Made by a program: the position numbers and the translations under genes. Shown here one piece after another: positions 9,611 through 60,424 of a DNA stretch of 64,000 nucleotides (within the stretch, counting starts at the first letter, position 1; each line of letters begins with the position of its first letter). The stretch is from Candidatus Microgenomates bacterium (GTDB lineage Bacteria > Patescibacteriota > Microgenomatia > Daviesbacterales > UBA10151): the NCBI GenBank assembly GCA_016182045.1, contig JACOYE010000008.1, forward strand, positions 502-64,501, read 5' to 3'. The notes under the pieces are model-generated. The model saw nothing but the letters and a program-made list of their open reading frames with translations. It had not been told where the DNA came from and did no database searches.

Positions 9611-9696
9611 TTTTCTATACCCTACTTTCCATTTTCTCTTAATTTTAAATTTTTAATTTGTAATTTTTAATGAAAATTTAAAATTTTAAATTTCAA

Positions 9697-9730
9697 ACTC
9701 CGTTATCTTCTAATTAGAAGATAACGGAGT
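9697..9730 (-). terminator. perfect 15-bp hairpin (ACTCCGTTATCTTCT-AATT-AGAAGATAACGGAGT) overlapping the rpsF stop codon, followed by a T-rich stretch on the minus strand; possible attenuator between rpsF and ssb
   Basis: The inverted repeat is visible in the sequence, and downstream on the minus strand is TTGAAATTTAAAATTTTAAATTTTC. Confidence 0.4.
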
Positions 9731-11189: not shown

Positions 11190-11591
11190 ATGAGTATTAT
11201 AGAACGTGGAATAGATACTGTCCCTCTACAACCAAGTCTTGCCGAAGATGTCGCTGAAAAATTTCCCCAGCTTGGTCCAAAAATGACCGGTCCGGCTCAA
11301 TTCATTGAGGGAACTTTAAAGAAAAACGCAATAGAGGCTACATTAGAGGAGAAGTGGGATCTTACATTTTACTTACTTTGGGCCTCCAGAGGAACCGAAG
11401 CAGATGAAAGTATCTTAGAGAAATTTAATATTAATAGGGAAGATTTTACGACTAGATGCAACAGAATTGCAGAGGATGAGCGTTTAGTGCAAATATACGA
11501 TTTGCTTGATAGGTCAATTCCAGCCACAGTGGAACGCGCTCTGCAAAATGTAATTTCTGACAGAGGATATCATCGAAGAAGAAAGCTCTAA
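11190..11591 (+). CDS. hypothetical protein (133 aa)
   Basis: ORF with an upstream consensus promoter. It converges on ychF with a 4-nt overlap. Confidence 0.45.
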   Translation: MSIIERGIDTVPLQPSLAEDVAEKFPQLGPKMTGPAQFIEGTLKKNAIEATLEEKWDLTFYLLWASRGTEADESILEKFNINREDFTTRCNRIAEDERLVQIYDLLDRSIPATVERALQNVISDRGYHRRRKL

Positions 11592-12685
11592 CTACTTACC
11601 AAAAATTCAATTACATCCCCATCTTGGATTACATAATCCTTCCCCTCAGTTCTAATCCAACCTTTAGATTTTGCTTGAGCATAAGATCCAGCCTCAATTA
11701 GTTTTTCATATTCTATAACTTGCGCTCTAATAAAGTTTTTTTCAAAATCAGTATGAATTACTCCAGCTGCTTGGGGAGCTCTTGTTCCAGATTTAATGGT
11801 CCATGCTCTCACCTCTTTTGGTCCAGCTGTTAAAAATGAAGTTAAACCTAAAAGCTGATAAGCTTTTTTAATTAGCCTTTCCAAACCTGTTTCTTCTATT
11901 CCCAGCTCTTTCAAATAATCTATCCTTTCCTGATCGGACAAGTCAATTAATTCCTCTTCCAGCCTAGCTGAAATTACCATCTCATTCTTATAACTACCAC
12001 GATCGTAGAGTTGTGATTTATAGTCTTGTTCTGAAACATTGTAAACATATAAAATTGGTTTTATAGATAAAAGTGGCAAGTGTAAAAACCAACTCCTCAA
12101 TCTTTCATCCCCAATATTATATTGGCCGAGCCCTCTCCCATTTTCTAACTCATCTTTTATTTGTTTAAGTATTGCCAGTTTTTGAGATTCTAAAGGATCT
12201 TTTGATACCCTGGTTTCTTTCTCTTGATATGTACATAGCTTTTCTACGGTTTCTAAATCAGCTAGAGCCAACTCTGTTTCCACAGTTAATTTATCAGCAT
12301 CAGGGTTTTCTGATCCAGCGCGAGCCACAATTTGATCCTCAAAGTCTCTTAAAACATGGATTATGGCATCAACTTCTCTGATGTGGGATAAAAATTGGTT
12401 TCCCAACCCTTCTCCTTTATGGGCTCCTTTAACTAAACCAGCTATATCCACAAATTCCACAATAGCTGGAACTACTGGAGGCGGAGACTCCATTTTCTCC
12501 TCTTTCTGCACCAGCTCTGCAAGTTTTTCCAATCGCTCATCAGGCACTGCCACCACCCCCACATTCGGTTCCACTGTGGCAAATGGATAATTGGCTGAAA
12601 GTGCCACTCTTTTTTTCAAAAGAGCATTAAAAAGTGTACTTTTCCCTACATTTGGTAATCCCACTATCCCAACTCGTAGACTCAT
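11588..12685 (-). CDS. ychF: ribosome-binding ATPase YchF (Obg-family GTPase with a C-terminal TGS domain)
   Basis: P-loop GIVGLPNVGKSTLFNAL followed by the YchF-type region ANYPFATVEPNVGVV. A TATAAT box lies at 12693-12698 on the minus strand upstream. Confidence 0.9.
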   Translation of the reverse strand: MSLRVGIVGLPNVGKSTLFNALLKKRVALSANYPFATVEPNVGVVAVPDERLEKLAELVQKEEKMESPPPVVPAIVEFVDIAGLVKGAHKGEGLGNQFLSHIREVDAIIHVLRDFEDQIVARAGSENPDADKLTVETELALADLETVEKLCTYQEKETRVSKDPLESQKLAILKQIKDELENGRGLGQYNIGDERLRSWFLHLPLLSIKPILYVYNVSEQDYKSQLYDRGSYKNEMVISARLEEELIDLSDQERIDYLKELGIEETGLERLIKKAYQLLGLTSFLTAGPKEVRAWTIKSGTRAPQAAGVIHTDFEKNFIRAQVIEYEKLIEAGSYAQAKSKGWIRTEGKDYVIQDGDVIEFLVSS

Positions 12686-14786: not shown

Positions 14787-16121
14787 ATGGACTTTTTCTC
14801 AATTGTAACAAAGCTTCTTCTCAGTTTTGCCCTGGGAGCCCTGATTGGCCTGGAAAGAGAAGTTAGTGAGAAAAAAATCATCAACCGCCACAAACCCCCT
14901 ACAGCGGTATTGGGTCTAAGAACCTTTTCGCTGGCTGCAGTCTTAGGCGCACTCACAGGCATTTTATATTCTGATTATTTAATAGTTGCAACTGTTCTGA
15001 GTGTAGCTTTCTTATCCCTACTTTTGGTCTTTTATATCTTTGATAGTTACACAACAAAAGATATTGGCTTTACCACAGAACTAGCTATGGTTTACAGCTT
15101 CTTAATAGGTATTTTCGTCAGTTTAGACATCTTGCCTATTCAACTTATCATTGCTTTGACAGTTGTTTTGGTGTTACTGCTTTCAAGAAAACCGGAAGTT
15201 AAAACTATTGTGGCAGGTATTCAAAGAAGTGAGATAAATGCATTTTTAAGTTATGCCATTATTGCTCTGGTGGTCCTGCCCTTTTTGCCGAATATTTCTT
15301 ATGCTCTATCTGATATCCCCCAAGTTGGTGTATTTTTAAAAAACTTTGGTTTTGACGTGAGTATAGTCTCGCAAATTGATTTGATAAATCCCTTCAAACT
15401 TTGGCTTTTTGTGGCACTTATCACCGGCATTGATTTGGCAGGATATTTTCTGGAAAAAACAATTGGACGGAAAAAAGGATGGTTGATTGCCTCAGTAGCA
15501 GGAGGATTTGTCTCATCTACTGCCACCACCCAATCTTTGGCCCAACAAAGCAAAACTTCAAAAAGCGTAAACCATCTTTTAGGTGCAGCCATAATTTCAA
15601 ATTCGGTTAGTTTTCTTCAGATTGCCATTTTGATTTCCACAATTAATTTTGCTTTATTTTTAAAAATCATACCGACAATTTTAGTTATGTCCTTTATGGC
15701 TACTTTGATTGCCGCATATTTTTTTAACATCAAAGAGGAATTTGCAGATACTTTAGGAAGTAAACTTAAGCATAGGATTTTTAATTTGACTTCTGCATTA
15801 AAATTTGTCAGTTTGTTTGTGGTGATAAGTATCTTGTCTAAATTAACCCTCAAATTTTTTGGTGAAAGTGGTTTTTTGGCAACCACTGCCATTGGCTCTC
15901 TGGTAGGATTGGATGCAGTCATGATTAACACTGCTCAGCTAACACAAAGCGTGATTGATTATCGTTTGGGACTGATGGCATTTATAACAGCCAATGCCGT
16001 CAATCTTTTGGGGAAAAGTTTTTATAGTTTTATTTTGGGTGATCGGATATTTGCCCTAAAATTCTTTATCTCAATTGTCCTTATCATTTTGGCAAGTTTT
16101 ATGGGGTTATTATTTATATGA
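14787..16121 (+). CDS. MgtC/SapB-family membrane protein with an extended DUF4010-like C-terminal membrane domain
   Basis: N-terminal LGALIGLEREV motif typical of MgtC and multiple transmembrane segments. Confidence 0.65.
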   Translation: MDFFSIVTKLLLSFALGALIGLEREVSEKKIINRHKPPTAVLGLRTFSLAAVLGALTGILYSDYLIVATVLSVAFLSLLLVFYIFDSYTTKDIGFTTELAMVYSFLIGIFVSLDILPIQLIIALTVVLVLLLSRKPEVKTIVAGIQRSEINAFLSYAIIALVVLPFLPNISYALSDIPQVGVFLKNFGFDVSIVSQIDLINPFKLWLFVALITGIDLAGYFLEKTIGRKKGWLIASVAGGFVSSTATTQSLAQQSKTSKSVNHLLGAAIISNSVSFLQIAILISTINFALFLKIIPTILVMSFMATLIAAYFFNIKEEFADTLGSKLKHRIFNLTSALKFVSLFVVISILSKLTLKFFGESGFLATTAIGSLVGLDAVMINTAQLTQSVIDYRLGLMAFITANAVNLLGKSFYSFILGDRIFALKFFISIVLIILASFMGLLFI

Positions 16122-25158: not shown

Positions 25159-26687
25159 TAATGTCTAAATGCTCTCCTTTCTGAAAATACCATTGGTATT
25201 CCTAACTCATCTGCTGCCTTAATTGATGCTTGATCATTTAAAGATCCACCTTGCTCTAAAATTGCTCCTATCCCATACTCTCCAGCAAGTTTGACACTAT
25301 CATCAAATGGAAAAAAGCTATCACTTATTAGAATACCACCTTTGGCAAAATCTTTTGCTTGTTCTAAAGCAATTTTGGTTGCCCCAATTCTTGAAGTTTG
25401 CCCAGATCCAATTCCACGGGTCTGCGGTAACTCCTTATCTATCACAATGACTGCATTGGATCTGACAGCTCTAACTGCTTTAAAACCAAATCTCATCAAA
25501 TCCATCTGTTTATCCGTGGGCTCTTTCTTTGTAACAACCTTCCAATCCTTAAAACTTTTTTCTAAATTATCATCAAAATCCTGAAGTAATATTGCACCTG
25601 CAAAATATTTTAGATCCCATTTTTCCGAACGAGTTTTTGGAATTTCACCAAATGTATAAACTCCCATGCTTTTTCTGACCTTTTTCAAAAGTTCTAACGC
25701 CTCATCAGAAATTTGCGGCACTGCCACAATATCCACATTGCCCATCTTTTCATTTTTAAAAGTGGCAATAACCTTTGCAGCCGAAACATCCATGGGCCTA
25801 TTAATAACCATAACTCCGCCAAAAGCAGACACAGGATCTGCTTTTACAGCCCTCTCCAATGCTTCTTGGGCATCTTTACCTGTTGCTATTCCACAAGGAC
25901 TTAGATGTTTAATTACACAAGCAGCAGTCTCCTTGAACTGTCTGACAGTTTCCAAGCCGGAATAAATATCTCCAATATTTGTCCCAGACAACTCCCTTCC
26001 CCAAAGATGCTTCAGTTTCGCCAAAGGCGAATTAGTCTTAGGCATTAAATATAAAGCACCATCTTGATGGGGATTTTCTCCATATCTTAAAATATTAGTT
26101 TTTCGCAAAGGTATGGTAACTTCTTTTGGAAATTTCTCATTTGAAAAATGATTCCCTATTTGGGAATCGTAAAATGATAAATAATAAAAAGCTTTGGCAG
26201 CTAACTCTTTTCTTAATTCATTAGTTACCCTACCATTTTCCAGAACATCAGCTACCATGACATAGTCCTCTGGACTAACAACTACTATCACATTCTCATA
26301 ATTTTTGGCAGCTGCCCTTATCATGGTCGGTCCACCTACATCAATATTTTCTACTGACGGTTTTTCCTCAAAAGGATAAAGATTACAAACAACAATATCA
26401 ATTTGTGGTACTTTTAATTCCTGCGCTTCATCCCTATGTTTGGGATTTTTTCTATCGAATAAAATCCCAGATTCTATTTGGAAAGAAATAGTTTTCATTC
26501 TACCATCAAAAGAATTCCTGGGATTCCCTGTTATTTCATCAATCGGGGTCACATCTACTCCGCCCTCTTTTAAAGCTTCATATGTTCCTTCTGTTGAAAT
26601 TATGGAGTAGCCATTTTTTACCAAGACTTTTGCGAAATCAACAATTCCAGTTTTATCATAAACACTTAAAAGGGCATACTTTTTCAT
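25158..26687 (-). CDS. purH: bifunctional AICAR transformylase / IMP cyclohydrolase
   Basis: N-terminal MGS-like KKYALLSVYDKTGIVDFAK followed by the AICARFT domain; 509 aa. Confidence 0.9.
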   Translation of the reverse strand: MKKYALLSVYDKTGIVDFAKVLVKNGYSIISTEGTYEALKEGGVDVTPIDEITGNPRNSFDGRMKTISFQIESGILFDRKNPKHRDEAQELKVPQIDIVVCNLYPFEEKPSVENIDVGGPTMIRAAAKNYENVIVVVSPEDYVMVADVLENGRVTNELRKELAAKAFYYLSFYDSQIGNHFSNEKFPKEVTIPLRKTNILRYGENPHQDGALYLMPKTNSPLAKLKHLWGRELSGTNIGDIYSGLETVRQFKETAACVIKHLSPCGIATGKDAQEALERAVKADPVSAFGGVMVINRPMDVSAAKVIATFKNEKMGNVDIVAVPQISDEALELLKKVRKSMGVYTFGEIPKTRSEKWDLKYFAGAILLQDFDDNLEKSFKDWKVVTKKEPTDKQMDLMRFGFKAVRAVRSNAVIVIDKELPQTRGIGSGQTSRIGATKIALEQAKDFAKGGILISDSFFPFDDSVKLAGEYGIGAILEQGGSLNDQASIKAADELGIPMVFSERRAFRH

Positions 26688-27772
26688 GTTAAGACTTTTT
26701 CCAGTTTACCTTTCTGGATCGCTTCTTTAATCTCCATTGCCACTCTTTTACCTATAGAAATATTTTGTCCGTACAAATATCCGCTGTAAGGGGTTGCAAA
26801 AATTCCAGGAGATCCTGGCATTCTGGGTGAAACATCAAAAACTATAATTTCTTTTTTAGGAGGTCCTGGTGTTATAACAGTTTGTAATGCAAACGGGCCA
26901 ATAACACCTGGCGGTACCAAATCTTTTGTAGCTTTTACAAATTTTTCTCCCAAAGAAAATGCATCCTCTAAAAGTGATTCCAAAACTGTCACAGCAATAT
27001 GACCTGCTTCTTCATACTTGACTCCAATTTTTTTCATCACATCTTCTCCATAATGTGCTGGCAGTTTTGTTAATCCTTCTATATTGGTCTGCCTTCTGGT
27101 ATCAGTTCCAATCAGCTCTAACCTAGAGTTAAGGGGAGAATAGAAAAAGTCAAAATTAACCTGTACACCAACAATAAACTCCTCCATAACTGCTTGGTTT
27201 ATTTGCTCTTGAGTAAATCTTCCCAACCCTAATCCTTGTTTTACACCTATTTCATATTCCTTAAAAGATTCAGCAAAGAAAAATGCTCTTTCAAATCCTC
27301 TCATCTTTTCCAAGACTTTAACAATACAAAGTCTGTCAATACTTTTTGGATCTTTAAATTGTTTTGGGTATCTAATATTTGCTTTATCTAATAAATCATA
27401 CTGATTAGGTTTTACTCCCCGTTCTTCTACTTTTAATAAAAACCTATTTCCAAACATTGGTATTTTAAATTTTTTCTCAATTGCCTCATAATCATTGATG
27501 TAAACTTCAAAAGATCTATGTGGAATAAATATGCCGTTTCTTTTTATCAACTGCTTTTGAACTTCGGGTTTTAAGATGTCTGAGAACTTTGCCAATTCTA
27601 TTACTTCATCAACACATCCCAACTCATTTTCACTTTTGTAATATTTTGCATAAGTTTTGTCTCTGCCTTTTTGCACAATTACCAAAGTTTTAAACCCCTC
27701 ATCTTTGGCCCCACGGCATACATCAAGTGCTGAATGAGAACCTAATACTGCAATGGTATAACTTTTATTCAT
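26684..27772 (-). CDS. purP: archaeal-type PurP-family ATP-grasp enzyme (FAICAR synthetase-like), paralog 1
   Basis: N-terminus IAVLGSHSALDVCRGAKDEGF and a PurP-like ATP-grasp body; 362 aa. Confidence 0.65.
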   Translation of the reverse strand: MNKSYTIAVLGSHSALDVCRGAKDEGFKTLVIVQKGRDKTYAKYYKSENELGCVDEVIELAKFSDILKPEVQKQLIKRNGIFIPHRSFEVYINDYEAIEKKFKIPMFGNRFLLKVEERGVKPNQYDLLDKANIRYPKQFKDPKSIDRLCIVKVLEKMRGFERAFFFAESFKEYEIGVKQGLGLGRFTQEQINQAVMEEFIVGVQVNFDFFYSPLNSRLELIGTDTRRQTNIEGLTKLPAHYGEDVMKKIGVKYEEAGHIAVTVLESLLEDAFSLGEKFVKATKDLVPPGVIGPFALQTVITPGPPKKEIIVFDVSPRMPGSPGIFATPYSGYLYGQNISIGKRVAMEIKEAIQKGKLEKVLT

Positions 27773-27832
27773 AATTTAAAATTTTTAATTTTTAATTTGA
27801 ATTCAAATTTTAAATTTCAAATTTGAAATTTT
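27773..27832. repeat. AT-only intercistronic element with perfect palindromes AATTTGAATTCAAATT and AAATTTCAAATTTGAAATTT; member of the AT-rich intercistronic repeat family
   Basis: Shares the TTTAAATTTTTAATTT and AAATTTTAAATTTCAAA blocks with 9641-9695, 53502-53607 and 59756-59869. Confidence 0.5.
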
Positions 27833-28849
27833 TCAATCTAAAACTTCCTTTAACTGATCTTGCTTAATAGCATTCTTAATCTCCCTTGCAATACGTCTTC
27901 CAGTACTCATTGGTTCTTTATAAAGTAAATAAGTATACGGTGAACCATTAATAAAAAAGTTTGTTCCAGCCACAATTCTTGCTGAAATTTCAATCACATA
28001 AATTTCCTCCGATGAAGTTATAATGGTCTCCAAACAAAATGGGCCAAAAAGTCCTTTTGGTGGTATCAGTCTCTTTGACACATCAATCACTCTGTCTGCC
28101 ATAGCCACAGCCTCTGCAAGCATTGATTCCCTTACAGCCATGGGGATATTGGCAACAACTTCAAAGGTTGGTTCTATACTAATTCCTCGCTGATTTTTGG
28201 CAGGAATTCGACCTAGCGAATCAACATTGGTTTCATATCTTTTATCAACACTCATAAGCTCCACTTTTTTGCTTAATGGTGAATAAAAGAAATGAAAATA
28301 AACCGGCACTCCAATTACATACTCTTGTACCATAAACCTTTCTTCGCTAAAGGTTTTGAGTTTTTCATCTAACTCTTTTTGATTTCTGGCAGTAAAATAT
28401 CCTTTTCCTCCTGCTGCCCCATATGATTTCACAATTACTGATCTATCAATTTTATCTCCTTTTCTAAACTTGTGTGGTACTTTAATACCAGATTTTTCCA
28501 TCCATTCCCTTTGCATTTTTCTATTCTCTTCCCAATCCAATACAGCCTTATTTCCAAAATAGGCAACTTGCATTTTTTTATTTTCATCCATCCCCAAATA
28601 TGCAACAAATGATCCGTGTGGAATTATTATTGAATTTCTTTTTATGAGACCTTTCTCAAGATTGGGAAAATCAGACCACTTATCAATCAATAAAATATCG
28701 TCAATAAAATTATCATAAGAAGAATAAAGTGTTTTTCTATCCGGAGTACAAACAACAGCGGTTTTAAAACCCTCATCTTTTGCGCCTTTGAGGATTTGTA
28801 AGGCGGAGTGAGATCCTAAAGTGACAATGGTTATGTTCTTAATTCCCAT
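27833..28849 (-). CDS. purP: archaeal-type PurP-family ATP-grasp enzyme, paralog 2
   Basis: N-terminus ITIVTLGSHSALQILKGAKDEGF; 338 aa; about 35% identical to paralog 1 by eye. Confidence 0.65.
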   Translation of the reverse strand: MGIKNITIVTLGSHSALQILKGAKDEGFKTAVVCTPDRKTLYSSYDNFIDDILLIDKWSDFPNLEKGLIKRNSIIIPHGSFVAYLGMDENKKMQVAYFGNKAVLDWEENRKMQREWMEKSGIKVPHKFRKGDKIDRSVIVKSYGAAGGKGYFTARNQKELDEKLKTFSEERFMVQEYVIGVPVYFHFFYSPLSKKVELMSVDKRYETNVDSLGRIPAKNQRGISIEPTFEVVANIPMAVRESMLAEAVAMADRVIDVSKRLIPPKGLFGPFCLETIITSSEEIYVIEISARIVAGTNFFINGSPYTYLLYKEPMSTGRRIAREIKNAIKQDQLKEVLD

Positions 28850-30514: not shown

Positions 30515-30537
30515 TATTTATTTTAACAGAAATATTA

Positions 30538-30579
30538 AATTATTCCCATTCCATAGTGGCTGGGGGGTTTGGTGAATTA
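30538..30579 (-). repeat. decayed copy A of the guaA 3' end (on the minus strand it would encode ...SPNPPATMEWE*)
   Basis: About 85% identical over 38 nt to the true guaA 3' end at 31864-31900. Confidence 0.6.
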
Positions 30580-30947: not shown

Positions 30948-31014
30948 AATTAAACAAATTGTATAAATTGATTAACTTGATTAAATCATTATTACTCAGG
31001 TATGTCAAGTACTA

Positions 31015-31049
31015 CTCCCACTCCATAGTGGCCGGGGGTTTGATGGTAA
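31015..31049 (-). repeat. decayed copy B of the guaA 3' end (would encode ...ITIKPPATMEWE*)
   Basis: CTCCCACTCCATAGTGGCCGGGGGTTTGATGGTAAT aligns to the guaA terminus. It abuts the vapC stop. Confidence 0.6.
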
Positions 31050-31442
31050 TTAATAATTCTGATAGAACTTTTGTAAGTTTTCATCAAAGGTTAAAAATTC
31101 ATCAGGTTTAATTCTTTGTAACTGGGCGGCAATCACTGAATCAGTAAACTTAATATTGACCATTTTAAATATATTAACTGCTTGCTGCATATCTGGTTTA
31201 TTTTCAAGGATTATCCCATCCAGGGCCAGTAGTTCTTGAAAAAAATCTATAATATTTTCCTTTGGTTCCTTATAAAAAGATCTGAGGACCCATTCAACTT
31301 CCGGAAATACTACTTGAGGAATAAAAATCTGTATCTTTCCATTTGTGCAATCCGCAAATAGTTTCTTCACCACATTGAATCTGGGATGTCTTTTTAACTT
31401 AAAGTCCAATAATACATTTGTATCTATGGCTACAATTTTCAT
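31050..31442 (-). CDS. vapC: PIN-domain toxin (VapC family)
   Basis: MKIVAIDTNVLLD... with conserved PIN acidic residues; 4-nt overlap with the upstream antitoxin gene. Confidence 0.75.
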   Translation of the reverse strand: MKIVAIDTNVLLDFKLKRHPRFNVVKKLFADCTNGKIQIFIPQVVFPEVEWVLRSFYKEPKENIIDFFQELLALDGIILENKPDMQQAVNIFKMVNIKFTDSVIAAQLQRIKPDEFLTFDENLQKFYQNY

Positions 31443-31843: not shown

Positions 31844-31863
31844 AATATAAAGTAGGGCTAGTT

Positions 31864-33381
31864 TTATTCCCATTCCATTGTTGCCGGGGGTTTGGTGGTG
31901 ATGTCATAAACTACCCGGGAAACTCCTGGGACTTCATTAACTATTCTGGATGAGATTTTCTGCAAAATCTCATACGGCAGTTTAGACCAGACAGTTGTCA
32001 TCACATCTTTGGACTCAATAATTCTTACTGCCATAACTTCTAAGTGGGCCCGCTCATCCCCTTTGACAGCCGTACTTTTGGTATTTGTTAAAATTGCAAA
32101 ACTCATATAAACTTTGCCATAAAGCTCGGCTTTTTTGATTTCCTCTAAAACAACTGCATCTGCCTGTTGCTGTCTTTCCAAACGCTCCTTTGTTACCTCC
32201 CCAATAATCCTGATTGCTTGACCCGGACCTGGAAAAACTTGTTTGAAGACAACTTCTTTTGGTAACCCCAATTTTTCTCCAATTAACCTAACTTCATCTT
32301 TATAAAAATCCCGCAAGGGCTCAAGAAGTTCCAAGTTCATCTCATCAGGCAATCCCCCCACATTATGATGCGATTTAATCTTATCTGCTTTTTTGGTCCC
32401 TTTACTTTCAATCACATCAGAATAAATTGTTCCCTGGGCCAAAAACTTTACCCCTTTTAACTTTTTTGCTTCTCTTTCAAATAATTCTATATAGATTTTG
32501 CCAATGGTTTTTCTTTTTTCCTCCGGATCCGTAATACCTTTGAGGGCTGAAAGAAATTCCTTCTCTGCCTCAACAATGATCGGGGTAATTTTTAAATGTT
32601 TTTGGAAAATTTGTAAAACTTCCTCTTTAGTTCCTACCCTCATCAGTCCGCTTTCAATATAAATGGGATATAAATTTTTGCCAATGGCTTTTCCAATAAG
32701 AGTTGCTGCGACAGTTGAGTCAACACCTCCAGAAACAGCACAGATAATTTTGTTATTTCCCACCCTTTCTTTGATATCTTTAATAACCTTTTTAATATCA
32801 ATCTTTTTTTTGGAAATCTTAAGTCCGCAAATATTTTGGGCAAAGTTTATCAGTATTTCGTTACCAAAAACAGTATGATCTACCTCAGGATGAAACTGGA
32901 CCCCAAAAATCTTTTTGTCTAAATTTGCTACAGCTGCTGCTTTAACATTTTCAGTACTTCCCAAATATGTAAACCCTTTAGGAATAGTTACTACGCTGTC
33001 ACCATGACTGACCCAGACAATGGAATTATTCTCCACACCTTGTAGGATAATTCCTTCATTTATGATATTAAGATTTGCCGGCCCATATTCTTTATGTCCC
33101 CCAACTACTTTCCCTCCTAAAAGATGGGCAGTCAGCTGCCAACCGTAACAAATACCAAGAATTGGAATTCCCAAACTAAAAATTTTTTTATCAATAGTAG
33201 GGGCGCCTTTTGCATAAACAGAAGCCGGCCCTCCGGAAAGAATAATCCCTTTTGGCTTAAACTTCTTAATCTCGGAAAGAGCATCTTCAGGCTGGATAAT
33301 AGTCACAGCAATGCCGTGATCCCGCAACCTTCTGCCAATCAAATGACAAGTTTGTGATCCAAAATCAACTATAATAATCAT
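31864..33381 (-). CDS. guaA: GMP synthase (glutamine-hydrolysing)
   Basis: N-terminal GATase (IIIVDFGSQ...GICYG), ATP-PPase SGGVDSTV and C-terminal ...KPPATMEWE. Confidence 0.9.
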   Translation of the reverse strand: MIIIVDFGSQTCHLIGRRLRDHGIAVTIIQPEDALSEIKKFKPKGIILSGGPASVYAKGAPTIDKKIFSLGIPILGICYGWQLTAHLLGGKVVGGHKEYGPANLNIINEGIILQGVENNSIVWVSHGDSVVTIPKGFTYLGSTENVKAAAVANLDKKIFGVQFHPEVDHTVFGNEILINFAQNICGLKISKKKIDIKKVIKDIKERVGNNKIICAVSGGVDSTVAATLIGKAIGKNLYPIYIESGLMRVGTKEEVLQIFQKHLKITPIIVEAEKEFLSALKGITDPEEKRKTIGKIYIELFEREAKKLKGVKFLAQGTIYSDVIESKGTKKADKIKSHHNVGGLPDEMNLELLEPLRDFYKDEVRLIGEKLGLPKEVVFKQVFPGPGQAIRIIGEVTKERLERQQQADAVVLEEIKKAELYGKVYMSFAILTNTKSTAVKGDERAHLEVMAVRIIESKDVMTTVWSKLPYEILQKISSRIVNEVPGVSRVVYDITTKPPATMEWE

Positions 33382-47812: not shown

Positions 47813-48214
47813 TTATCCACCCACCCCCCGTTTTAACTCAGCCTTACCCATAGCCTTGATGGCAATAGGCAGTTCTTTTTTCTTTTGAATTATCACTATC
47901 TCTTCCTTTTGTTTCTCCTGCTGCTCTTGCTGTTGTCTTTGTAATTGTTTTTGTTTCTCTTGTTCTCTAACACGTCTTTGGTCTTCCCGCAAATCATTCC
48001 ACCAATTAAGTTTTCTTCTGGTTTCTGCCAGTTGTTTTTGTCTTTCCAGCTCTTTTTGCTGAAGCTGTTGTGGAGTAAGCTGAGTACCTGCTACAGATTG
48101 AACCCCCTGCTCAATTGCCTGCCCCACCGAATCTTTAACATCCCTAGTGACATCCCTAACTGCTGTCTCCATTTCATCAGTAAATTGTTTTACAGTCCCA
48201 CCAGAATCAGCCAT
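47813..48214 (-). CDS. hypothetical Gln/Glu/Lys-rich coiled-coil protein (133 aa)
   Basis: ORF with low-complexity QQ/EK repeats. Confidence 0.35.
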   Translation of the reverse strand: MADSGGTVKQFTDEMETAVRDVTRDVKDSVGQAIEQGVQSVAGTQLTPQQLQQKELERQKQLAETRRKLNWWNDLREDQRRVREQEKQKQLQRQQQEQQEKQKEEIVIIQKKKELPIAIKAMGKAELKRGVGG

Positions 48215-51487: not shown

Positions 51488-53095
51488 CTAGTTAATGGAG
51501 TCTGAGTTAAAAATTTCTGAAGCAATTCGTATAATTTCATCATCTTGGGCCACCTCTATATTAACAACATCTTCCAATCTTTTAGGACGGTTGCCTAAAA
51601 CCGTTACCACCTTCACTTGCCTTCCTAAAATATCAGACAAGACAGATTCCAAAAGATCCCGATTTTTGGGAGCTTCCAGAATTCTTTGATGAAAAGAATA
51701 AGGTACTTCCAAAACTACCCCGGTTTCATTACATTCTCTAATATTTATGGATCTAAGTAATGCTTCCAAAGAAAAATTAAATGGTCTGATAGTTTCCAAA
51801 ACATAAGTCCATTTTTCCTTAAGCAAAAGGATATCAGGGGAATCTGAACTTGACGGTGGATGATTGAGGATAGAAGGTGGATCTTTGATGCCGGAAGATG
51901 GAGGATGGATTTCTTCTTGCTTTTCTATATTCGAACTCCTACCTTCTACCTCTATCTTCAATTTTCCATCATCTATCGTCTTATTTGTTTGTTCTCCACA
52001 TATCTCCACCACTGCTATCTCTAACGGTAATTGAGGAATTAAGGCAAATTTTAATTTTTCCAAGGCATCTTGTAATACATCCAAGGCATCAATTAAATTA
52101 TTGGTGCCAAACTGTTCAGAGATTTCTACTAATTTTTGATAATTCTCCTGGGTATATTGAGGTTTTACCAGATGCTGCCCTACACCGTTTTTAATGAGCA
52201 TCAAACTTCTCAATATATCCATCAAAGACACCATCAACTCCTTAACATCCAAACCTTTATCTATCTGTTTTTGTACAGTCATTAAGCTCTCTTGAATTTT
52301 CTTTTTAGCCAAAGTTTCAATAACTCCTATTAAATCATCAAACTTTGAGGAGCTTAAGGTTACTAATAAAATATCATTGGTAATCTTTTTCCCTAAAGTA
52401 GCTACTTGATCAAGCAATTTGACCGCATCTCTAAAGGAGCCATCGGCTTTCTTAATCAGAGTTTGAATCGCCTCTCCCTCAATATCAATTTTTTCCTCTT
52501 TAATAATTCTCTCCAAAGCCTGTCTTAACTCCATATGAGTAGCCAGCTTAAAATCCAGTCTTTGGGAACGGGAAAGAATTGTTTGTGGAATTTTCGAAAC
52601 CTCAGTGGTGGCCATAATGAAAAGGGCATGGTTGGGGGGTTCTTCCAAGGTTTTAAGGAGTGCATTAAAGGCCTCGCTGGTTAACATATGAACCTCATCA
52701 ATTATGTAAACTTTCTTTTTAGAAGAAGTTGGGGCCAGTTTAATTTTTTCCCTTAATGCTCTGATATCTTCAATACCTCTGTTTGATGCCGCATCTATCT
52801 CGATGAGGTCCAAATTGCTACCATCGGTTATGGAGACGCATGTAGAACACTTATTACATGGGACTTCACCCTTCCCGCTTTCCCCTTTACCCTCACAATT
52901 AACCATCTTGGCCAAAATTCTGGCTGTGGAAGTTTTGCCTGTACCTCTGGGACCGACAAAAAGATAGGCATGTGATAATTTATTGCCTTTGTAAGAGGCG
53001 AAAAGAGTTTCCTTAATCCCTTCTTGACCAATTAGATCCTTAAGGGTCTGAGGACGATATTTTAGGTAGAATGCTTGATTGATATTTTTACTCAT
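51488..53095 (-). CDS. dnaX: DNA polymerase III subunit gamma/tau
   Basis: AAA+ P-loop GPRGTGKTS, Zn module CNKCSTC and the SRSQ sensor region. Confidence 0.85.
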   Translation of the reverse strand: MSKNINQAFYLKYRPQTLKDLIGQEGIKETLFASYKGNKLSHAYLFVGPRGTGKTSTARILAKMVNCEGKGESGKGEVPCNKCSTCVSITDGSNLDLIEIDAASNRGIEDIRALREKIKLAPTSSKKKVYIIDEVHMLTSEAFNALLKTLEEPPNHALFIMATTEVSKIPQTILSRSQRLDFKLATHMELRQALERIIKEEKIDIEGEAIQTLIKKADGSFRDAVKLLDQVATLGKKITNDILLVTLSSSKFDDLIGVIETLAKKKIQESLMTVQKQIDKGLDVKELMVSLMDILRSLMLIKNGVGQHLVKPQYTQENYQKLVEISEQFGTNNLIDALDVLQDALEKLKFALIPQLPLEIAVVEICGEQTNKTIDDGKLKIEVEGRSSNIEKQEEIHPPSSGIKDPPSILNHPPSSSDSPDILLLKEKWTYVLETIRPFNFSLEALLRSINIRECNETGVVLEVPYSFHQRILEAPKNRDLLESVLSDILGRQVKVVTVLGNRPKRLEDVVNIEVAQDDEIIRIASEIFNSDSIN

Positions 53096-53501
53096 GGTGG
53101 ATCCCCAACAGATGACCTACACCATGCTCCACTAAGTTTCTTATCTCCTCATCTACTGGTATCCCATCAATTGAAGCATCCTCCACTGCCTGCGGATAGG
53201 AAATGACAATGTCACCAAGCCTTAAAAATTTATCGGGCGAGGACACAAAACCGATTCTGGGAATATGTTGTAAGTTTGATTGATTAGGATCCTCAAGGGC
53301 AAAAGATAATATGTCTGTGGTGGAGTCAATCCCGCGAAACTTCCGATTAAGCTCGTGCATCTTCCGATCTCCCACAATATTGACCCCCAGCTCTATTCTG
53401 CCGTGGATGCGGTGTCTCCGTAGAGCCTCTAAAACTACCACTCTTATAGCCGCTCTATCTATTCCATATCTTGGATCTGAAGAAACAATAATATTAATCA
53501 T
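53088..53501 (-). CDS. ybeY: rRNA maturation endoribonuclease YbeY
   Basis: H-x3-H-x5-H zinc motif (HGVGHLLGIHHE) and RKMHELNRKFRGIDSTTDILSF. Confidence 0.85.
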   Translation of the reverse strand: MINIIVSSDPRYGIDRAAIRVVVLEALRRHRIHGRIELGVNIVGDRKMHELNRKFRGIDSTTDILSFALEDPNQSNLQHIPRIGFVSSPDKFLRLGDIVISYPQAVEDASIDGIPVDEEIRNLVEHGVGHLLGIHHE

Positions 53502-53607
53502 AAATTTTAAATTCTAAATTTTTAATTTTTATTCAAATATAAATGTCTTAATTTTAAATTTTTAAACATTTAAAATTGATTTAAAATTTCAAATTGAAAA
53601 TTAAAAA
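53502..53607. repeat. AT-rich intercistronic repeat R1 (106 bp) between yqeY and ybeY; about 90% identical to R2 at 59756-59869
   Basis: Alignment of the two regions shows only one 11-nt indel and a few substitutions. Confidence 0.6.
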
Positions 53608-54051
53608 TTATTCAGATAACCTTTCCTTAACTATATTACTAACAACACTTCCATCAGCTCTACCAGCCACCTTACCCATAACTAATCCCATTACTCTTCC
53701 CATATCATCCAAACTTTTGGCCCCTAACTCATTTATAGAATCTTGGACTAATTTAGTCAACTCCTCATTTGAAAGTTGGGCCGGCATATATGCTTGCAAA
53801 ATCTTTTCTTCAGCTTCTTCTTTCTGTGCTTGATCTTCCCTGCCACCTTGTCTAAAACCCTCTGCTGCTTCTTTTCTTTTTTTAACTTCCCGTTGAGCAA
53901 CCTGGATCGCGTCTTGATCAGTTAAGTTACCACCCTTTTGAATCTCTAGATTGTGGATCTCTGACAAAAGCAGTCTTAAGGTGACAACCTTTACTTCATC
54001 CCTATCTAGCTGAGCTTGTTTTAAATCAGACTGCAATTGATCAATCAACAT
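53608..54051 (-). CDS. GatB/YqeY-domain protein
   Basis: MLIDQLQSDLKQAQLDRDEVKVVTLRLLLSEI... typical YqeY. Confidence 0.8.
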   Translation of the reverse strand: MLIDQLQSDLKQAQLDRDEVKVVTLRLLLSEIHNLEIQKGGNLTDQDAIQVAQREVKKRKEAAEGFRQGGREDQAQKEEAEEKILQAYMPAQLSNEELTKLVQDSINELGAKSLDDMGRVMGLVMGKVAGRADGSVVSNIVKERLSE

Positions 54052-56150: not shown

Positions 56151-57389
56151 TTAGAAATTTAGTATCTTTAAAAGTTTGTCAAAAGTCACAAATTTTGTTT
56201 CCTTCTCATGTCTTTTTTTAACTTCCAATTTCTCCCCTGTCTTTTTGGAAATAACTACTCTATATGGAATTCCTATTAGATCACAATCTGCAAATTTTTC
56301 TCCTGCTGACATTTTTTGACGGTCGTCAAATAATGTCTCTATTCCCTCTGCTTGTAAAAGCTTATACATTTTTTCTGCCTCTTCCATTACACTTCTTTCT
56401 TCCAGATCCAATCCCACAACATGTACCATATATGGAGCCACGGACTCCGGCCAAATTATTCCTTTTTCATCATGATAAACTTCCACAATTGTTCCCATCA
56501 CTCTGGTAATACCTATCCCGTAACAGCCCATTACCACCGGTTTTTCTTTACCATCTTTATCTTTAAAAGTTAAACCAAATGCATCTGAGAATCTGGTTTT
56601 TAAAGGAAAAATATTCCCCACCTCAATAGCCCGGGCCCTCTTAAGAGGTCCATGACCCAAATCGCACTGCTTACCTTCTTTTACTTGAGCTATTTCCACA
56701 TTGGAACTAAAATCCCCACCCTCACAATAAATAATCTCATCCTCTCCGCTTCGGCAAAGTACCTGATATTCATGAGAAAATTTACTGAATGCTCCACCAG
56801 TTGCCTCTGTTTCTATAGCTTTTAACCCGCATCTTTCAAAAACATTTTTATAAGATTTTTTCATCACCTCATAATAGCTTTCCATATCTTTATCATCAGC
56901 ATGAAAAGAATAAAGATCTTTCATGATAAATTCCCTGCCTCTTAAAATGCCACTTTTGGCCCGCGGTTCATCTCTAAATTTGGTTTGAATTTGATAAAGA
57001 TACAAAGGCAGATCTTTATAGGAGTTTATAAGCTGCTTGACTATTGGCACCAAAACCTCTTCATGAGTAGGACCTAAAGTAAATTCGAAGTCATATCTAC
57101 TTTTAACTTTGAAAAGCGCATCAAAACTTTCCCATCTGCCGGTTTTTTCCCAATTAGCTCTATTTTGCAAGGCACTCATAAGCATTTCCTGACCTCCTGC
57201 CGCATTCATCTGCTCTCTGACAATTTTATTGATTTTATCTAACACCCTAAATCCTAAAGGCAAATAATTATAAACTCCAGCTACTTCTTTTCTGATAAAT
57301 CCGGCGCGAACCAAAAGTTTGGCATTAACCGAAACTTCGTCTTTAGGATCTTGTTTTATGGTTTTTCCAAAAAGTTTCGAATACTTCAT
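56151..57389 (-). CDS. proS: prolyl-tRNA synthetase, minimal bacterial-type lacking the INS editing domain
   Basis: Class II motifs (FRDEPRAKSGILRGREF) and an anticodon-binding C-terminus; only 412 aa. Confidence 0.85.
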   Translation of the reverse strand: MKYSKLFGKTIKQDPKDEVSVNAKLLVRAGFIRKEVAGVYNYLPLGFRVLDKINKIVREQMNAAGGQEMLMSALQNRANWEKTGRWESFDALFKVKSRYDFEFTLGPTHEEVLVPIVKQLINSYKDLPLYLYQIQTKFRDEPRAKSGILRGREFIMKDLYSFHADDKDMESYYEVMKKSYKNVFERCGLKAIETEATGGAFSKFSHEYQVLCRSGEDEIIYCEGGDFSSNVEIAQVKEGKQCDLGHGPLKRARAIEVGNIFPLKTRFSDAFGLTFKDKDGKEKPVVMGCYGIGITRVMGTIVEVYHDEKGIIWPESVAPYMVHVVGLDLEERSVMEEAEKMYKLLQAEGIETLFDDRQKMSAGEKFADCDLIGIPYRVVISKKTGEKLEVKKRHEKETKFVTFDKLLKILNF

Positions 57390-58606: not shown

Positions 58607-59743
58607 CTAAAAAAGAATTTTTTGGATATCTGAAAAGGTGATAAAGATTGTCAATGCCAAAAGCAGTGCCAAACCAACTGCATGAACCCACCGTTCAATC
58701 TCAGCATGAACCCTTCTTCTTGTTAAAGCTTCAACCAGTAAGAAAAACAGCCTTCCTCCATCTAAGGCCGGTATCGGTAGCAGATTTATTACGGCCAAAT
58801 TAAGAGATAAAATGGCCACGAAATTAATATAAGGTATAAAAGGTTTGTCTGTTGAGGTTAAAATGCTATTTGCCAAATTTGTAATACCCACAGGACCAGC
58901 AACTGAGTGAGAAACCGGGGTAAAACTTTTCTCAAGTATAGATTGATTTATCAGCTGGCCAAAAACTTTTCCGGAATAGGCAATCAAATTCCAAGAATGA
59001 ATTGGTCCTAACAATAATTTTGATAAAAGACTTCTATATTCTAAAGTAGCCACTCTAAATTGGCCAAAAGAAATTCCCAAGGGACCTTGACCTTCGGGTG
59101 GATTTATTCTGGGGGTAACAGTGACATCTTTTAAGTTTTGCTTTTGGGGATCAGACAAAGTAATCTTTATTTCTTGTCCTGCCAAACTTTTGGTTTTGTT
59201 AACCAGTTCCCCCTCCCCGCTTATCTCTTCACCATTAATGGCAATAATTCTATCTCCCATCTTTATGCCTGCTGACTCAGCCGGAGAATCTTTGGCCACA
59301 CTTCCCACCAAAACCACTGTTTCAACTTGTTGATCTGTTAGAAAAAACTTGTGATCAAACCTTAGATCTATCTGGAATTTAAATCCTTGGGATGCTAAAA
59401 CCGCGTAAAAAAGTACCCAGGCAAATAGAAGATTCATCAAAACTCCTGCCACCACCACTAATATTCTTCTAAAAACTTCTTGGGCAGCAAATGATCTATG
59501 GTTCTCTAAAATTTTTCTGTCCACCTCATCTTCTCCCAAAAGCTTAACAAATCCTCCAAAAGGTAACCAGTTTAAGGAAAATATTGTCTCACCAAATTTT
59601 TTGCCCCAGGCTCTAGGGGGAATCCCAAACCCAAATTCTAAAACTTTAATATTAAATTTTTTAGCCACCAAAAAGTGACCCAGTTCGTGGATGAGAACCA
59701 GAACTAAAAGGGTAATGATGAAAATGATGATGGAAAATATCAT
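58607..59743 (-). CDS. rseP: RIP site-2 metalloprotease RseP (M50 family with PDZ)
   Basis: HELGHFLVAK (HExxH) in TM1, a PDZ segment and a C-terminal LDGG motif. Confidence 0.85.
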   Translation of the reverse strand: MIFSIIIFIITLLVLVLIHELGHFLVAKKFNIKVLEFGFGIPPRAWGKKFGETIFSLNWLPFGGFVKLLGEDEVDRKILENHRSFAAQEVFRRILVVVAGVLMNLLFAWVLFYAVLASQGFKFQIDLRFDHKFFLTDQQVETVVLVGSVAKDSPAESAGIKMGDRIIAINGEEISGEGELVNKTKSLAGQEIKITLSDPQKQNLKDVTVTPRINPPEGQGPLGISFGQFRVATLEYRSLLSKLLLGPIHSWNLIAYSGKVFGQLINQSILEKSFTPVSHSVAGPVGITNLANSILTSTDKPFIPYINFVAILSLNLAVINLLPIPALDGGRLFFLLVEALTRRRVHAEIERWVHAVGLALLLALTIFITFSDIQKILF

Positions 59744-59755
59744 ATTTAGTTTAGT

Positions 59756-59869
59756 GAATTTTAAATTCTAAATTTTTAATTTTTATTCAAATCTGAATGA
59801 CTAAATTTTAAATTTTTAAACATTTAATCATTAAATATTGATTTAAAATTTCAAATTGAAAATTAAAAA
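59756..59869. repeat. AT-rich intercistronic repeat R2 (114 bp) between frr and rseP; near-identical to R1
   Basis: See R1. Confidence 0.6.
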
Positions 59870-60424
59870 TTATATTTGAGTCAGTTCTTCTTCCTTAGCC
59901 TTCCCCAAACTTTCCACTTCTAATATCTTTTTATCTACCAGCTCCTGCAGTAATTTTTCCCTTCTAAAAAATTCATCTTCCCCATACTTTCCATCCTCCT
60001 GTTCTTTTTTCCATAAATTCCTAGAATCATGCCGTATTTGTCTTATCTCCACCCGGGCTTGTTCCATCTTTTGATGCAAAAGTTTGATAAATTCTTCCCT
60101 CCTTTCGGAAGTCAGTGGTGGGATTGGCAGACGGATTAATGTACCTTCATTTGAGGGATTAAATCCCAACTTTGCTTCTTGGATGGCCTTTATCACATTA
60201 TCCAAAATGGAAGCATCCCAGACTTGAACTGTTAAAAGTGTGGGTTGTGGAGCAGAAATATTTCCCACCTCCACCAATTTCATCTTTGATCCATAGGCAT
60301 CAACAGGGATATTTTCCACTAAAGCCGGATTAGCCCTCCCCGCTCTAATCCCAGCAATCTCCATCTTAAAATGGTGTATGGCTGCCTCTATCTTTTCGCT
60401 TAGTTGGGTCAGGACTGGATCCAT
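59870..60424 (-). CDS. frr: ribosome recycling factor
   Basis: IRAGRANPALVENIPVDAYG... RRF signature. Confidence 0.9.
   Translation of the reverse strand: MDPVLTQLSEKIEAAIHHFKMEIAGIRAGRANPALVENIPVDAYGSKMKLVEVGNISAPQPTLLTVQVWDASILDNVIKAIQEAKLGFNPSNEGTLIRLPIPPLTSERREEFIKLLHQKMEQARVEIRQIRHDSRNLWKKEQEDGKYGEDEFFRREKLLQELVDKKILEVESLGKAKEEELTQI

Follow-up and report, generated by a model that had tools for sequence, protein, structure and literature searches.

The described systems closest to the repeat reported here are the bacterial MITEs, or miniature inverted-repeat transposable elements, which are short, non-coding and multi-copy, have inverted ends, lie in intergenic DNA in either orientation and are present or absent at orthologous sites with a patchy distribution. 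Palindromic repeats of ~100–150 bp near or within transcription units are also known as the Correia elements of Neisseria (Correia repeat enclosed elements, CREE, or Neisseria miniature insertion sequences, NEMIS). Confined to Neisseria, they possess defined terminal repeats of 26 bp and a TA duplication and, if co-transcribed, are targets of RNase III; cleavage by RNase III has also been shown for repeats of the enterobacterial repetitive intergenic consensus (ERIC) type. Arrays of 7-bp units are known from other settings: omega of pSM19035, a ribbon-helix-helix repressor, binds heptad iteron arrays, and the short tandemly repeated repetitive (STRR) sequences of cyanobacteria are tandem heptamer repeats. 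Correia elements have been reported as promoter carriers in the works listed in the references of PMC11602168 (Siddique et al. 2011, Black et al. 1995) and in PMC3575422. The class of putative mobile promoters consists of highly similar upstream regions of non-homologous genes, sometimes across distant taxa (Nijveen, Matus-Garcia, van Passel; PMC3575422). Where repetitive extragenic palindromic (REP) sequences are characterized in PMC3733652 and PMC2817692, they appear as G+C-rich stem-loops of 20–40 bp with conserved GTAG/CGTC heads, linked to REP-associated tyrosine transposases (RAYTs). Here we compare with these systems a repeat of ~110–120 bp and >90 % A+T, found as two full copies (A and B) in a 64,000-nt stretch of a Candidatus Microgenomates bacterium (contig JACOYE010000008.1). 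The whole stretch is referred to as the window, and coordinates are given on its numbering; L-numbers label the genome and metagenome loci and contigs that were compared with it.

We interpret the repeat as a MITE-like, non-coding, non-autonomous mobile element at gene junctions, a reading to which we assign a probability of about 0.6. The window has a G+C content of ~38 % and carries nearly all of its genes on the minus strand. Copy A (109 bp) lies between yqeY and ybeY and copy B (117 bp) between frr and rseP, and each takes in the TAA stop codon of the upstream gene and one further base. A preliminary description of this DNA had noticed that the two spacers are near-identical, and this likeness is real, as two shared 36-mers and an identity beyond that of shuffled sequences attest. 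Pfam bears out the gene names given in that description. Its limits for the repeat needed correction, to the extents in Table 1. Identity is 95.3 % over 106 aligned positions, indels aside. Alignment with MAFFT shows one indel of 8–11 nt, together with two long identical blocks and five clustered substitutions. Both repeats had also been placed directly 5′ of the downstream start codon, which holds for copy A, abutting the ybeY ATG, but not for copy B, which ends 13 nt (59744–59756) before the rseP ATG within a full frr–rseP spacer of 59744–59869.

Composition alone does not account for this similarity. The window contains two exact occurrences of each of two 36-mers from the repeat, where 100 dinucleotide-preserving shuffles lead one to expect 0, and shuffled A+T-rich versions, when aligned globally, had a mean identity of ~70 % and a maximum of 82.5 %. 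Only nine 40-nt stretches at ≥90 % A+T were counted in the whole 64 kb, so the window is not saturated with A+T runs. The repeat therefore passed the shuffled-sequence control by which the preliminary description had proposed to judge it. For the same strain, short-read contigs from Logan (100 % identical; L001–L003, L203 and L204) stop 26–50 nt into the repeat on either side of copy B, which marks the element as a systematic assembly breakpoint. When strain-level empty alleles were sought in the Logan assemblies, contigs with identical Frr or RseP were found simply to terminate in the repeat, and the YbeY product had no record there.

Each copy forms an imperfect palindrome from end to end. 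Its arms, as inverted arrays, each consist of some five 7-bp units, which read AATTTnn in one and nnAAATT (typically TTGAAAA or TTTCAAA) in the other; a short central palindrome, AATGTTT...AAACATT, lies between them. Period-7 autocorrelation was 0.62, compared with 0.43 ± 0.05 in shuffles, and a profile model of the repeat family (nhmmer, see below) matched either strand of each copy about equally well. Within the terminal helix, 88 % of cells are paired, against 55–63 % after a slide of one column; low complexity inflates these values. When the end-to-end hairpin was imposed, 82.9 % of cells were paired, against 55–63 % if it was slid by one column and 81.9 % in column shuffles; the equality with the column shuffles means that the pairing reflects conserved inverted arms and not covariation, with one G-C/C-G switch as an exception. 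A small open reading frame (ORF) of 15 codons (MFKNLKLRHLYLNKN in copy A) was considered and rejected, because A and B differ there mostly by non-synonymous substitutions and the corresponding copy in the related contig L130 is in a different reading frame. No ORF is conserved across A, B and L130.

The element belongs to a large family in genomes of the candidate phyla radiation (CPR)/Patescibacteria. As a search key, the 20-mer AAAATTTCAAATTGAAAATT from the stop-proximal arm was scanned against one genome per species, and among the matches listed it was found at more than 119 genome loci, most of them intergenic. About 40 of the listed loci bear CPR/Patescibacteria names (Levy-, Curtiss-, Roizman-, Blackburn-, Shapiro-, Gottesman-, Jorgensen- and Kaiserbacteria, Saccharimonadales), and several genomes among these matches give many contigs or sites, such as OY970292.1 and CAZIGB01. 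Other listed loci include many low-GC metagenome-assembled genomes titled 'Gammaproteobacteria'. Twenty full-length examples aligned with copies A and B over ~115 nt to a single consensus, and the nhmmer model built from this alignment gave 94 distinct matches among the listed genome-scan loci and the window. Near-full-length matches numbered 43 once the frr loci described below were added. In the window itself, two weaker, partial relatives, first picked up by a repeat search and then scored by the family model, accompany the two full copies; these relatives and the family in other genomes are what came of the search for more copies that had been suggested at the outset.

Family members occur in both orientations relative to co-directional genes (34 versus 27 contexts), with no preference. 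Their neighbours are diverse: by Pfam, 122 flanking ORFs are housekeeping genes (MreB, RuvB, ribosomal proteins, RecA etc.) with no common theme, which makes a gene-specific operator unlikely. A phage origin was addressed by searching IMG/VR with the 20-mer, which returned just three matches, all coding and chance-like, and a plasmid origin by blastn, which gave no match under a low-complexity filter that may hide matches. No published description was found in the searchable literature of this repeat family, nor of MITEs in Patescibacteria, and literature searches with sequence strings returned primers and unrelated matches only. Among the low-GC contigs with the title 'uncultured Gammaproteobacteria bacterium', at least L004, L031, L032 and L072 encode proteins nearest to the CPR-like proteins of the window, and their taxonomic labels look doubtful; L004 and the window share 54–69 % amino-acid identity and a conserved gene order.

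The heptad module was also found as inverted arms in other palindromic repeats, on Alcaligenaceae, Acidobacteriota and Thermoanaerobaculia contigs, for which homology and convergence are both possible. High-GC genomes (L040, L115, L007, L085 Alcaligenaceae, 62 % GC; L055, L092, L044, L079) have palindromic repeats with AATTGAAAATT-type heptads as inner arms. Some of these repeats are enclosed by outer inverted repeats rich in G+C (GGCTCTCCGCGAA...TTCGCGGAGAGCC), and some include tandem heptamers, such as CAATTGT or GCAATTT, repeated three times. In a Phycisphaeraceae contig of 61 % GC (L070:2554–2573), a long hairpin that contains G+C (CCAAATCACAAACAACTCTCAAA ... TTTGAGAGTTGTTTGTGATTTGG) has the 20-mer in its loop, a context unlike that of the CPR elements.

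Mobility is suggested by orthologous junctions that are filled in one genome and empty in another. A metagenome scan with Frr yielded 77 loci, 42 of them at 67–87 % Frr identity. In ~20 of these relatives the frr stop codon overlaps the rseP start codon as TAATG (or TGATG), which is taken as the ancestral state, and the RseP N-terminus MIFSIIIF is common to the window and the empty-site relatives. These overlaps indicate that copy B is a lineage-specific insertion of ~125 nt at a junction where stop and start codons overlapped. Likewise, in six relatives only 1–16 unaligned nt lie between yqeY and ybeY. In L130 the yqeY–ybeY junction is filled by the same sub-family as in the window and the frr–rseP junction is empty, and in L004 a family member separates cmk from the gene that follows it, a junction that in the window consists of a 9-nt spacer bearing a good Shine–Dalgarno sequence. 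In 615 kb of relatives the family model found just three copies, which amounts to a patchy distribution with clear gains.

Sequence divergence among the copies points in a similar direction. Copies A and B are 95 % identical, B and the L130 copy 93 %, and A and the L130 copy 86 %, compared with 70 % nucleotide identity for the flanking ybeY and yqeY genes of the window and L130 and 39–53 % at their third codon positions. The copies thus appear too similar for neutral vertical descent, suggesting either strong constraint or a recent shared master sequence. Copy B is nearer to the L130 copy, which is at another locus, than copy A is, and this fits copying from a master sequence. From such a master, copies would spread either as transposons that depend on a trans-acting transposase or through some other copy-and-insert process.

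Other small repeats were observed at the same two junctions, which look like hot spots for them. At frr–rseP, TAGAAT heptads form a direct array of 66 nt in L123, L139, L140, L147 and L160 have other palindromic repeats, several of them G+C-richer, and the distant L196 has a direct AATTTTC array just after frr. At yqeY–ybeY, a different 81-nt palindrome, GGATAAGAGTA...TACTCTTATCC, was found in L141 (9588–9668).

The element has several of the properties by which a MITE is defined, namely a length of <300 bp without coding capacity, terminal inverted repeats, several copies per genome, and filled versus empty orthologous sites. A MITE was among several roles that the preliminary description had proposed, and it emerged as the best supported of them, given the multi-copy family and its occurrence in either orientation. 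Several observations weigh against this reading. No consistent target-site duplication was found: frr–rseP is compatible with A or AT and yqeY–ybeY with TTT, in an A+T context that makes either uninformative. TA flanks many members of the family. No arm pair encloses an ORF in the 8-kb pieces fetched around the matches, and no transposase is among the most frequent Pfam families of the 122 flanking ORFs; the search for a partner covered these pieces, and a cognate transposase may lie elsewhere in these genomes. The arms of the window copies are only 75–78 % complementary, a figure that low complexity inflates, and the right-arm 20-mer appears conserved partly since it was used as the search key. 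Finally, the same site is occupied in two related genomes in two cases (copy A and L130; L041 and L052, with the same flanks), which may represent selected retention and not mobility. The site shared by L041 and L052 shows that copies can be kept for a long time.

Table 1. Coordinates of the repeat copies, their parts and relatives, and the adjoining genes in the window
Feature	Position	Strand	Remarks
Copy A of repeat	53503..53611	-	Occupies entire yqeY–ybeY spacer and yqeY TAA stop codon; nhmmer E 1.6e-10 and 3.2e-10 (both strands)
Copy A, ATG-proximal arm	53503..53551		49 nt, 78 % complementary to 53561–53609; arms 9 nt apart
Copy A, stop-proximal arm	53561..53609		Holds family 20-mer AAAATTTCAAATTGAAAATT
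TAGAAT, -10-like hexamer	53511..53516	-	9 nt upstream of ybeY ATG; putative promoter function
Copy B of repeat	59757..59873	-	frr–rseP spacer and frr TAA stop codon; nhmmer E 4.2e-13 and 2.2e-10 (both strands)
Copy B, ATG-proximal arm	59757..59812		56 nt, 75 % complementary to 59816–59871; arms 3 nt apart
Copy B, stop-proximal arm	59816..59871		Holds family 20-mer; extra 8–11 nt lengthen central stem
TAGAAT, -10-like hexamer	59765..59770	-	21 nt upstream of rseP ATG; putative promoter function
Short diverged family relative	9639..9700		Upstream of ssb, between terminator-like hairpin and ssb; nhmmer E 1.1e-4
Short diverged family relative	27772..27845		Fills spacer between two tandem purP-like (DUF1246/DUF1297) genes; nhmmer E 5e-4
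ybeY	53088-53501	-	Pfam YbeY, E 4.7e-24; directly downstream of copy A; no Shine–Dalgarno
yqeY	53608-54051	-	Pfam YqeY; upstream of copy A
rseP	58607-59743	-	Pfam M50 protease with PDZ domain (RseP-type); downstream of copy B; no Shine–Dalgarno
frr	59870-60424	-	Pfam RRF/Frr; upstream of copy B

Although it resembles bacterial MITEs in its general properties, the element differs from them in having arms that are arrays of a 7-bp unit and not a single terminal repeat, in its >90 % A+T content, and in a terminal 20-mer common to several CPR lineages and also encountered as a module in high-GC phyla. The A+T-only, heptad-built arms, the precise insertion into stop/start overlaps and the recurrence of the heptad module in high-GC repeats are all unusual. 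Correia elements are the nearest functional analogue, as mobile repeats that bring expression signals; they are neither A+T-only nor heptad-built, and no sequence relation is claimed. The element shares with REP sequences, bacterial interspersed mosaic elements (BIMEs) and REP doublets forming hairpins (REPINs) the character of an extragenic palindromic repeat in intergenic spacers, often right after stop codons. Membership in the REP/REPIN group was nevertheless rejected, as the element is 110–120 bp long and A+T-only, and no RAYT-like (Y1-transposase) family is among the most frequent neighbour families of the 122 ORFs. As in omega iterons and STRR sequences, unspaced 7-bp units occur in direct and inverted array in intergenic or promoter DNA, but the unit sequence is different and STRR sequences are tandem, not palindromic, so the likeness is taken as a lead only. 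Resemblances by eye to a CodY box and to an IHF site were dropped because spacing or key positions did not fit. Copies A and B do fit the definition of a putative mobile promoter, being 95 % identical upstream of the non-homologous ybeY and rseP. That class is defined by similarity only, whereas the element is additionally palindromic and transposon-like.

The effect of such an insertion on its gene pair is best considered at the two window junctions. Insertion would break the stop/start translational coupling of the pair. With coupling lost, no Shine–Dalgarno sequence at ybeY or rseP and both ORFs intact, the element would have to be either transparent to expression or driving it. In the latter case it may provide a portable promoter together with an AU-rich region for initiation, by which a coupled pair becomes two separately started genes. 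We regard such a second role of the mobile element, as promoter or initiation region, as a tentative proposal with the odds somewhat against it. A, B and L130 do not differ in the 32 nt at the ATG-proximal end (GAATAAAAATTAAAAATTTAGAATTTAAAATT), which include the -10-like TAGAAT. The mRNAs of this organism may be mostly leaderless, as the sequences upstream of its genes suggest: 48 of the 64 gene starts in the window are without a Shine–Dalgarno-like motif and 16 have one. Many operon-first genes were also observed to have TATAAT, TATAGT or TAGAAT, often after TGn, ending 5–9 nt before the ATG (for example 11588–12685, 14787–16121, 27833–28849, 47813–48214 and 56151–57389).

The proposed promoter activity was also examined at the level of individual hexamers. 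A generic sigma-70 consensus scan of the window copies gave promoter-like sites no commoner than in shuffles, and the distance from TAGAAT to the ATG varies between 9 nt (ybeY), 13 nt (L130) and 21 nt (rseP), both of which count against a promoter-bearing mobile element. The internal promoter envisaged in the preliminary description is plausible in view of the -10-like TAGAAT near the ATG and of the mostly leaderless-looking predicted starts, but the scan gives the window copies no special standing. Four heptads of many family members together read TTGAAA-17 nt-GAAAAT facing outwards, which the scan flags in L119 and not in L083 or the window copies. A more elaborate proposal would be that the 7-bp units are near-consensus sigma-70 hexamers (TTGAAA as -35-like, GAAAAT or TAGAAT as -10-like), with three heptads (21 bp) setting the 17-bp spacer. 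The element would then be a self-contained, orientation-independent mobile promoter module that spreads within and between phyla (CPR and, as part of other palindromic repeats, high-GC Proteobacteria and Acidobacteriota) and, on insertion into stop/start overlaps, makes coupled genes separately transcribed, with leaderless or short-leader mRNAs. We consider this fuller version rather doubtful.

The alternative that survives best is that the repeat is not a selfish element but a host regulatory cassette kept by selection, its heptads forming a generic strong promoter/UP region or an array of sites to which an abundant DNA-binding protein would bind cooperatively, in the manner of ribbon-helix-helix repressors on heptads, and its copies spread by recombination or local slippage. 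The much greater conservation of the copies than of neutral flanking sites is consistent with this, as are the occupied sites shared by related genomes (A and L130; L041 and L052) and the strict 7-bp grammar, in which TTGAAA and GAAAAT resemble -35 and -10 boxes. Non-palindromic heptad arrays at the same junction elsewhere (L123, and L196 after frr) and the same heptads within unrelated palindromic repeats of high-GC bacteria could also be explained in this way. However, close relatives manage without the element at the same junctions, the downstream genes have no shared function, and the closer match of B than of A to the L130 copy at another locus fits master copying and not local evolution. 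We know of no candidate binding protein. Overall, a selected cassette appears unlikely as the explanation of the repeat.

The proposal that the element acts as RNA, with an intercistronic AU hairpin serving as a processing or stability site (e.g. an RNase III target), a weak terminator or an uncoupling insulator, fared less well and is considered improbable. Some folding results would agree with it. On the mRNA strand the copies fold end to end, A at -16.5 (z -1.3) and B at -21 kcal/mol (z -2.5), and the better-preserved L075 folds at -38 kcal/mol with z -5.9. The differences between A and B, including the indel, retain a central stem, though a different one, and one arm position switches from G-C to C-G in 6–7 copies. 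Quasi-palindrome correction can, however, yield such 'compensatory' changes without selection. RNAalifold on 35 family members gave no consensus structure, and the paired cells in the imposed hairpin were hardly more frequent than in the shuffles (82.9 versus 81.9 %). The lack of an orientation preference relative to transcription (34 versus 27) likewise argues against a function on one RNA strand, and it is unlikely that the element is a conserved, structured RNA bound to one strand.

Searches for known RNA features agreed with this. At the gathering score, no Rfam family matched in the window, and up to E = 1 there was a single chance snoRNA match (E 0.85); a tRNA/tmRNA scan returned nothing. 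A terminator scan of A and B found no G+C-rich hairpin with a T run inside either copy. The small RNA, the structured processing signal and the intrinsic terminator that the preliminary description had listed among candidate roles are thus not supported, and the check for structure and covariation among copies that it proposed came out negative, the pairing being explained by column conservation. Taken singly, copies do adopt long AU hairpin folds, so processing of read-through transcripts could still take place.

That there is no element at all, only low-complexity A+T likeness or independent growth of heptamers by replication slippage, might be entertained in view of the >90 % A+T content, the strong 7-bp periodicity and the other heptamer arrays at the same junctions in relatives, but it is refuted by the shuffle controls on 36-mers and identity (95 % against a maximum of 82.5 %), by a non-periodic central part also common to A and B and by the recurrence of the full-length architecture in dozens of genomes, and is given hardly any credence.

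Genomes of CPR/Patescibacteria are usually described as streamlined and repeat-poor. A widespread family of intergenic repeats at core-gene junctions, even those with overlapping stop and start codons (frr–rseP, yqeY–ybeY, cmk–next gene), shows that CPR gene junctions are dynamic, and it is precisely at these junctions that the repeat interrupts assemblies of short reads. If the element carries its own promoter, a native expression signal would be at hand for organisms in which genetics is only now becoming feasible, and the family would offer a tangible example of a mobile element spreading promoters in a lineage with mostly leaderless-looking starts.

Three further features of the window were observed in the course of the analysis. 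A perfect palindrome with 15-bp stems (ACTCCGTTATCTTCT AATT AGAAGATAACGGAGT) at 9692–9725, between an upstream gene and the A+T-rich DNA that precedes ssb, resembles a terminator working in both directions. The genes at 26684–27772 and 27833–28849 are tandem paralogues with DUF1246 and DUF1297 domains (archaeal-type PurP-like ATP-grasp), and the A+T spacer of 60 nt between them is like a member of the repeat family. A separate direct repeat of 51 nt occurs in three copies (30528–30578, 31000–31050 and 31852–31902) with 61–78 % identity and the core CCCAYTCCATWGTKGCYGGGGG; these lie at or near the ends of small neighbouring genes and are possibly paralogous gene ends.

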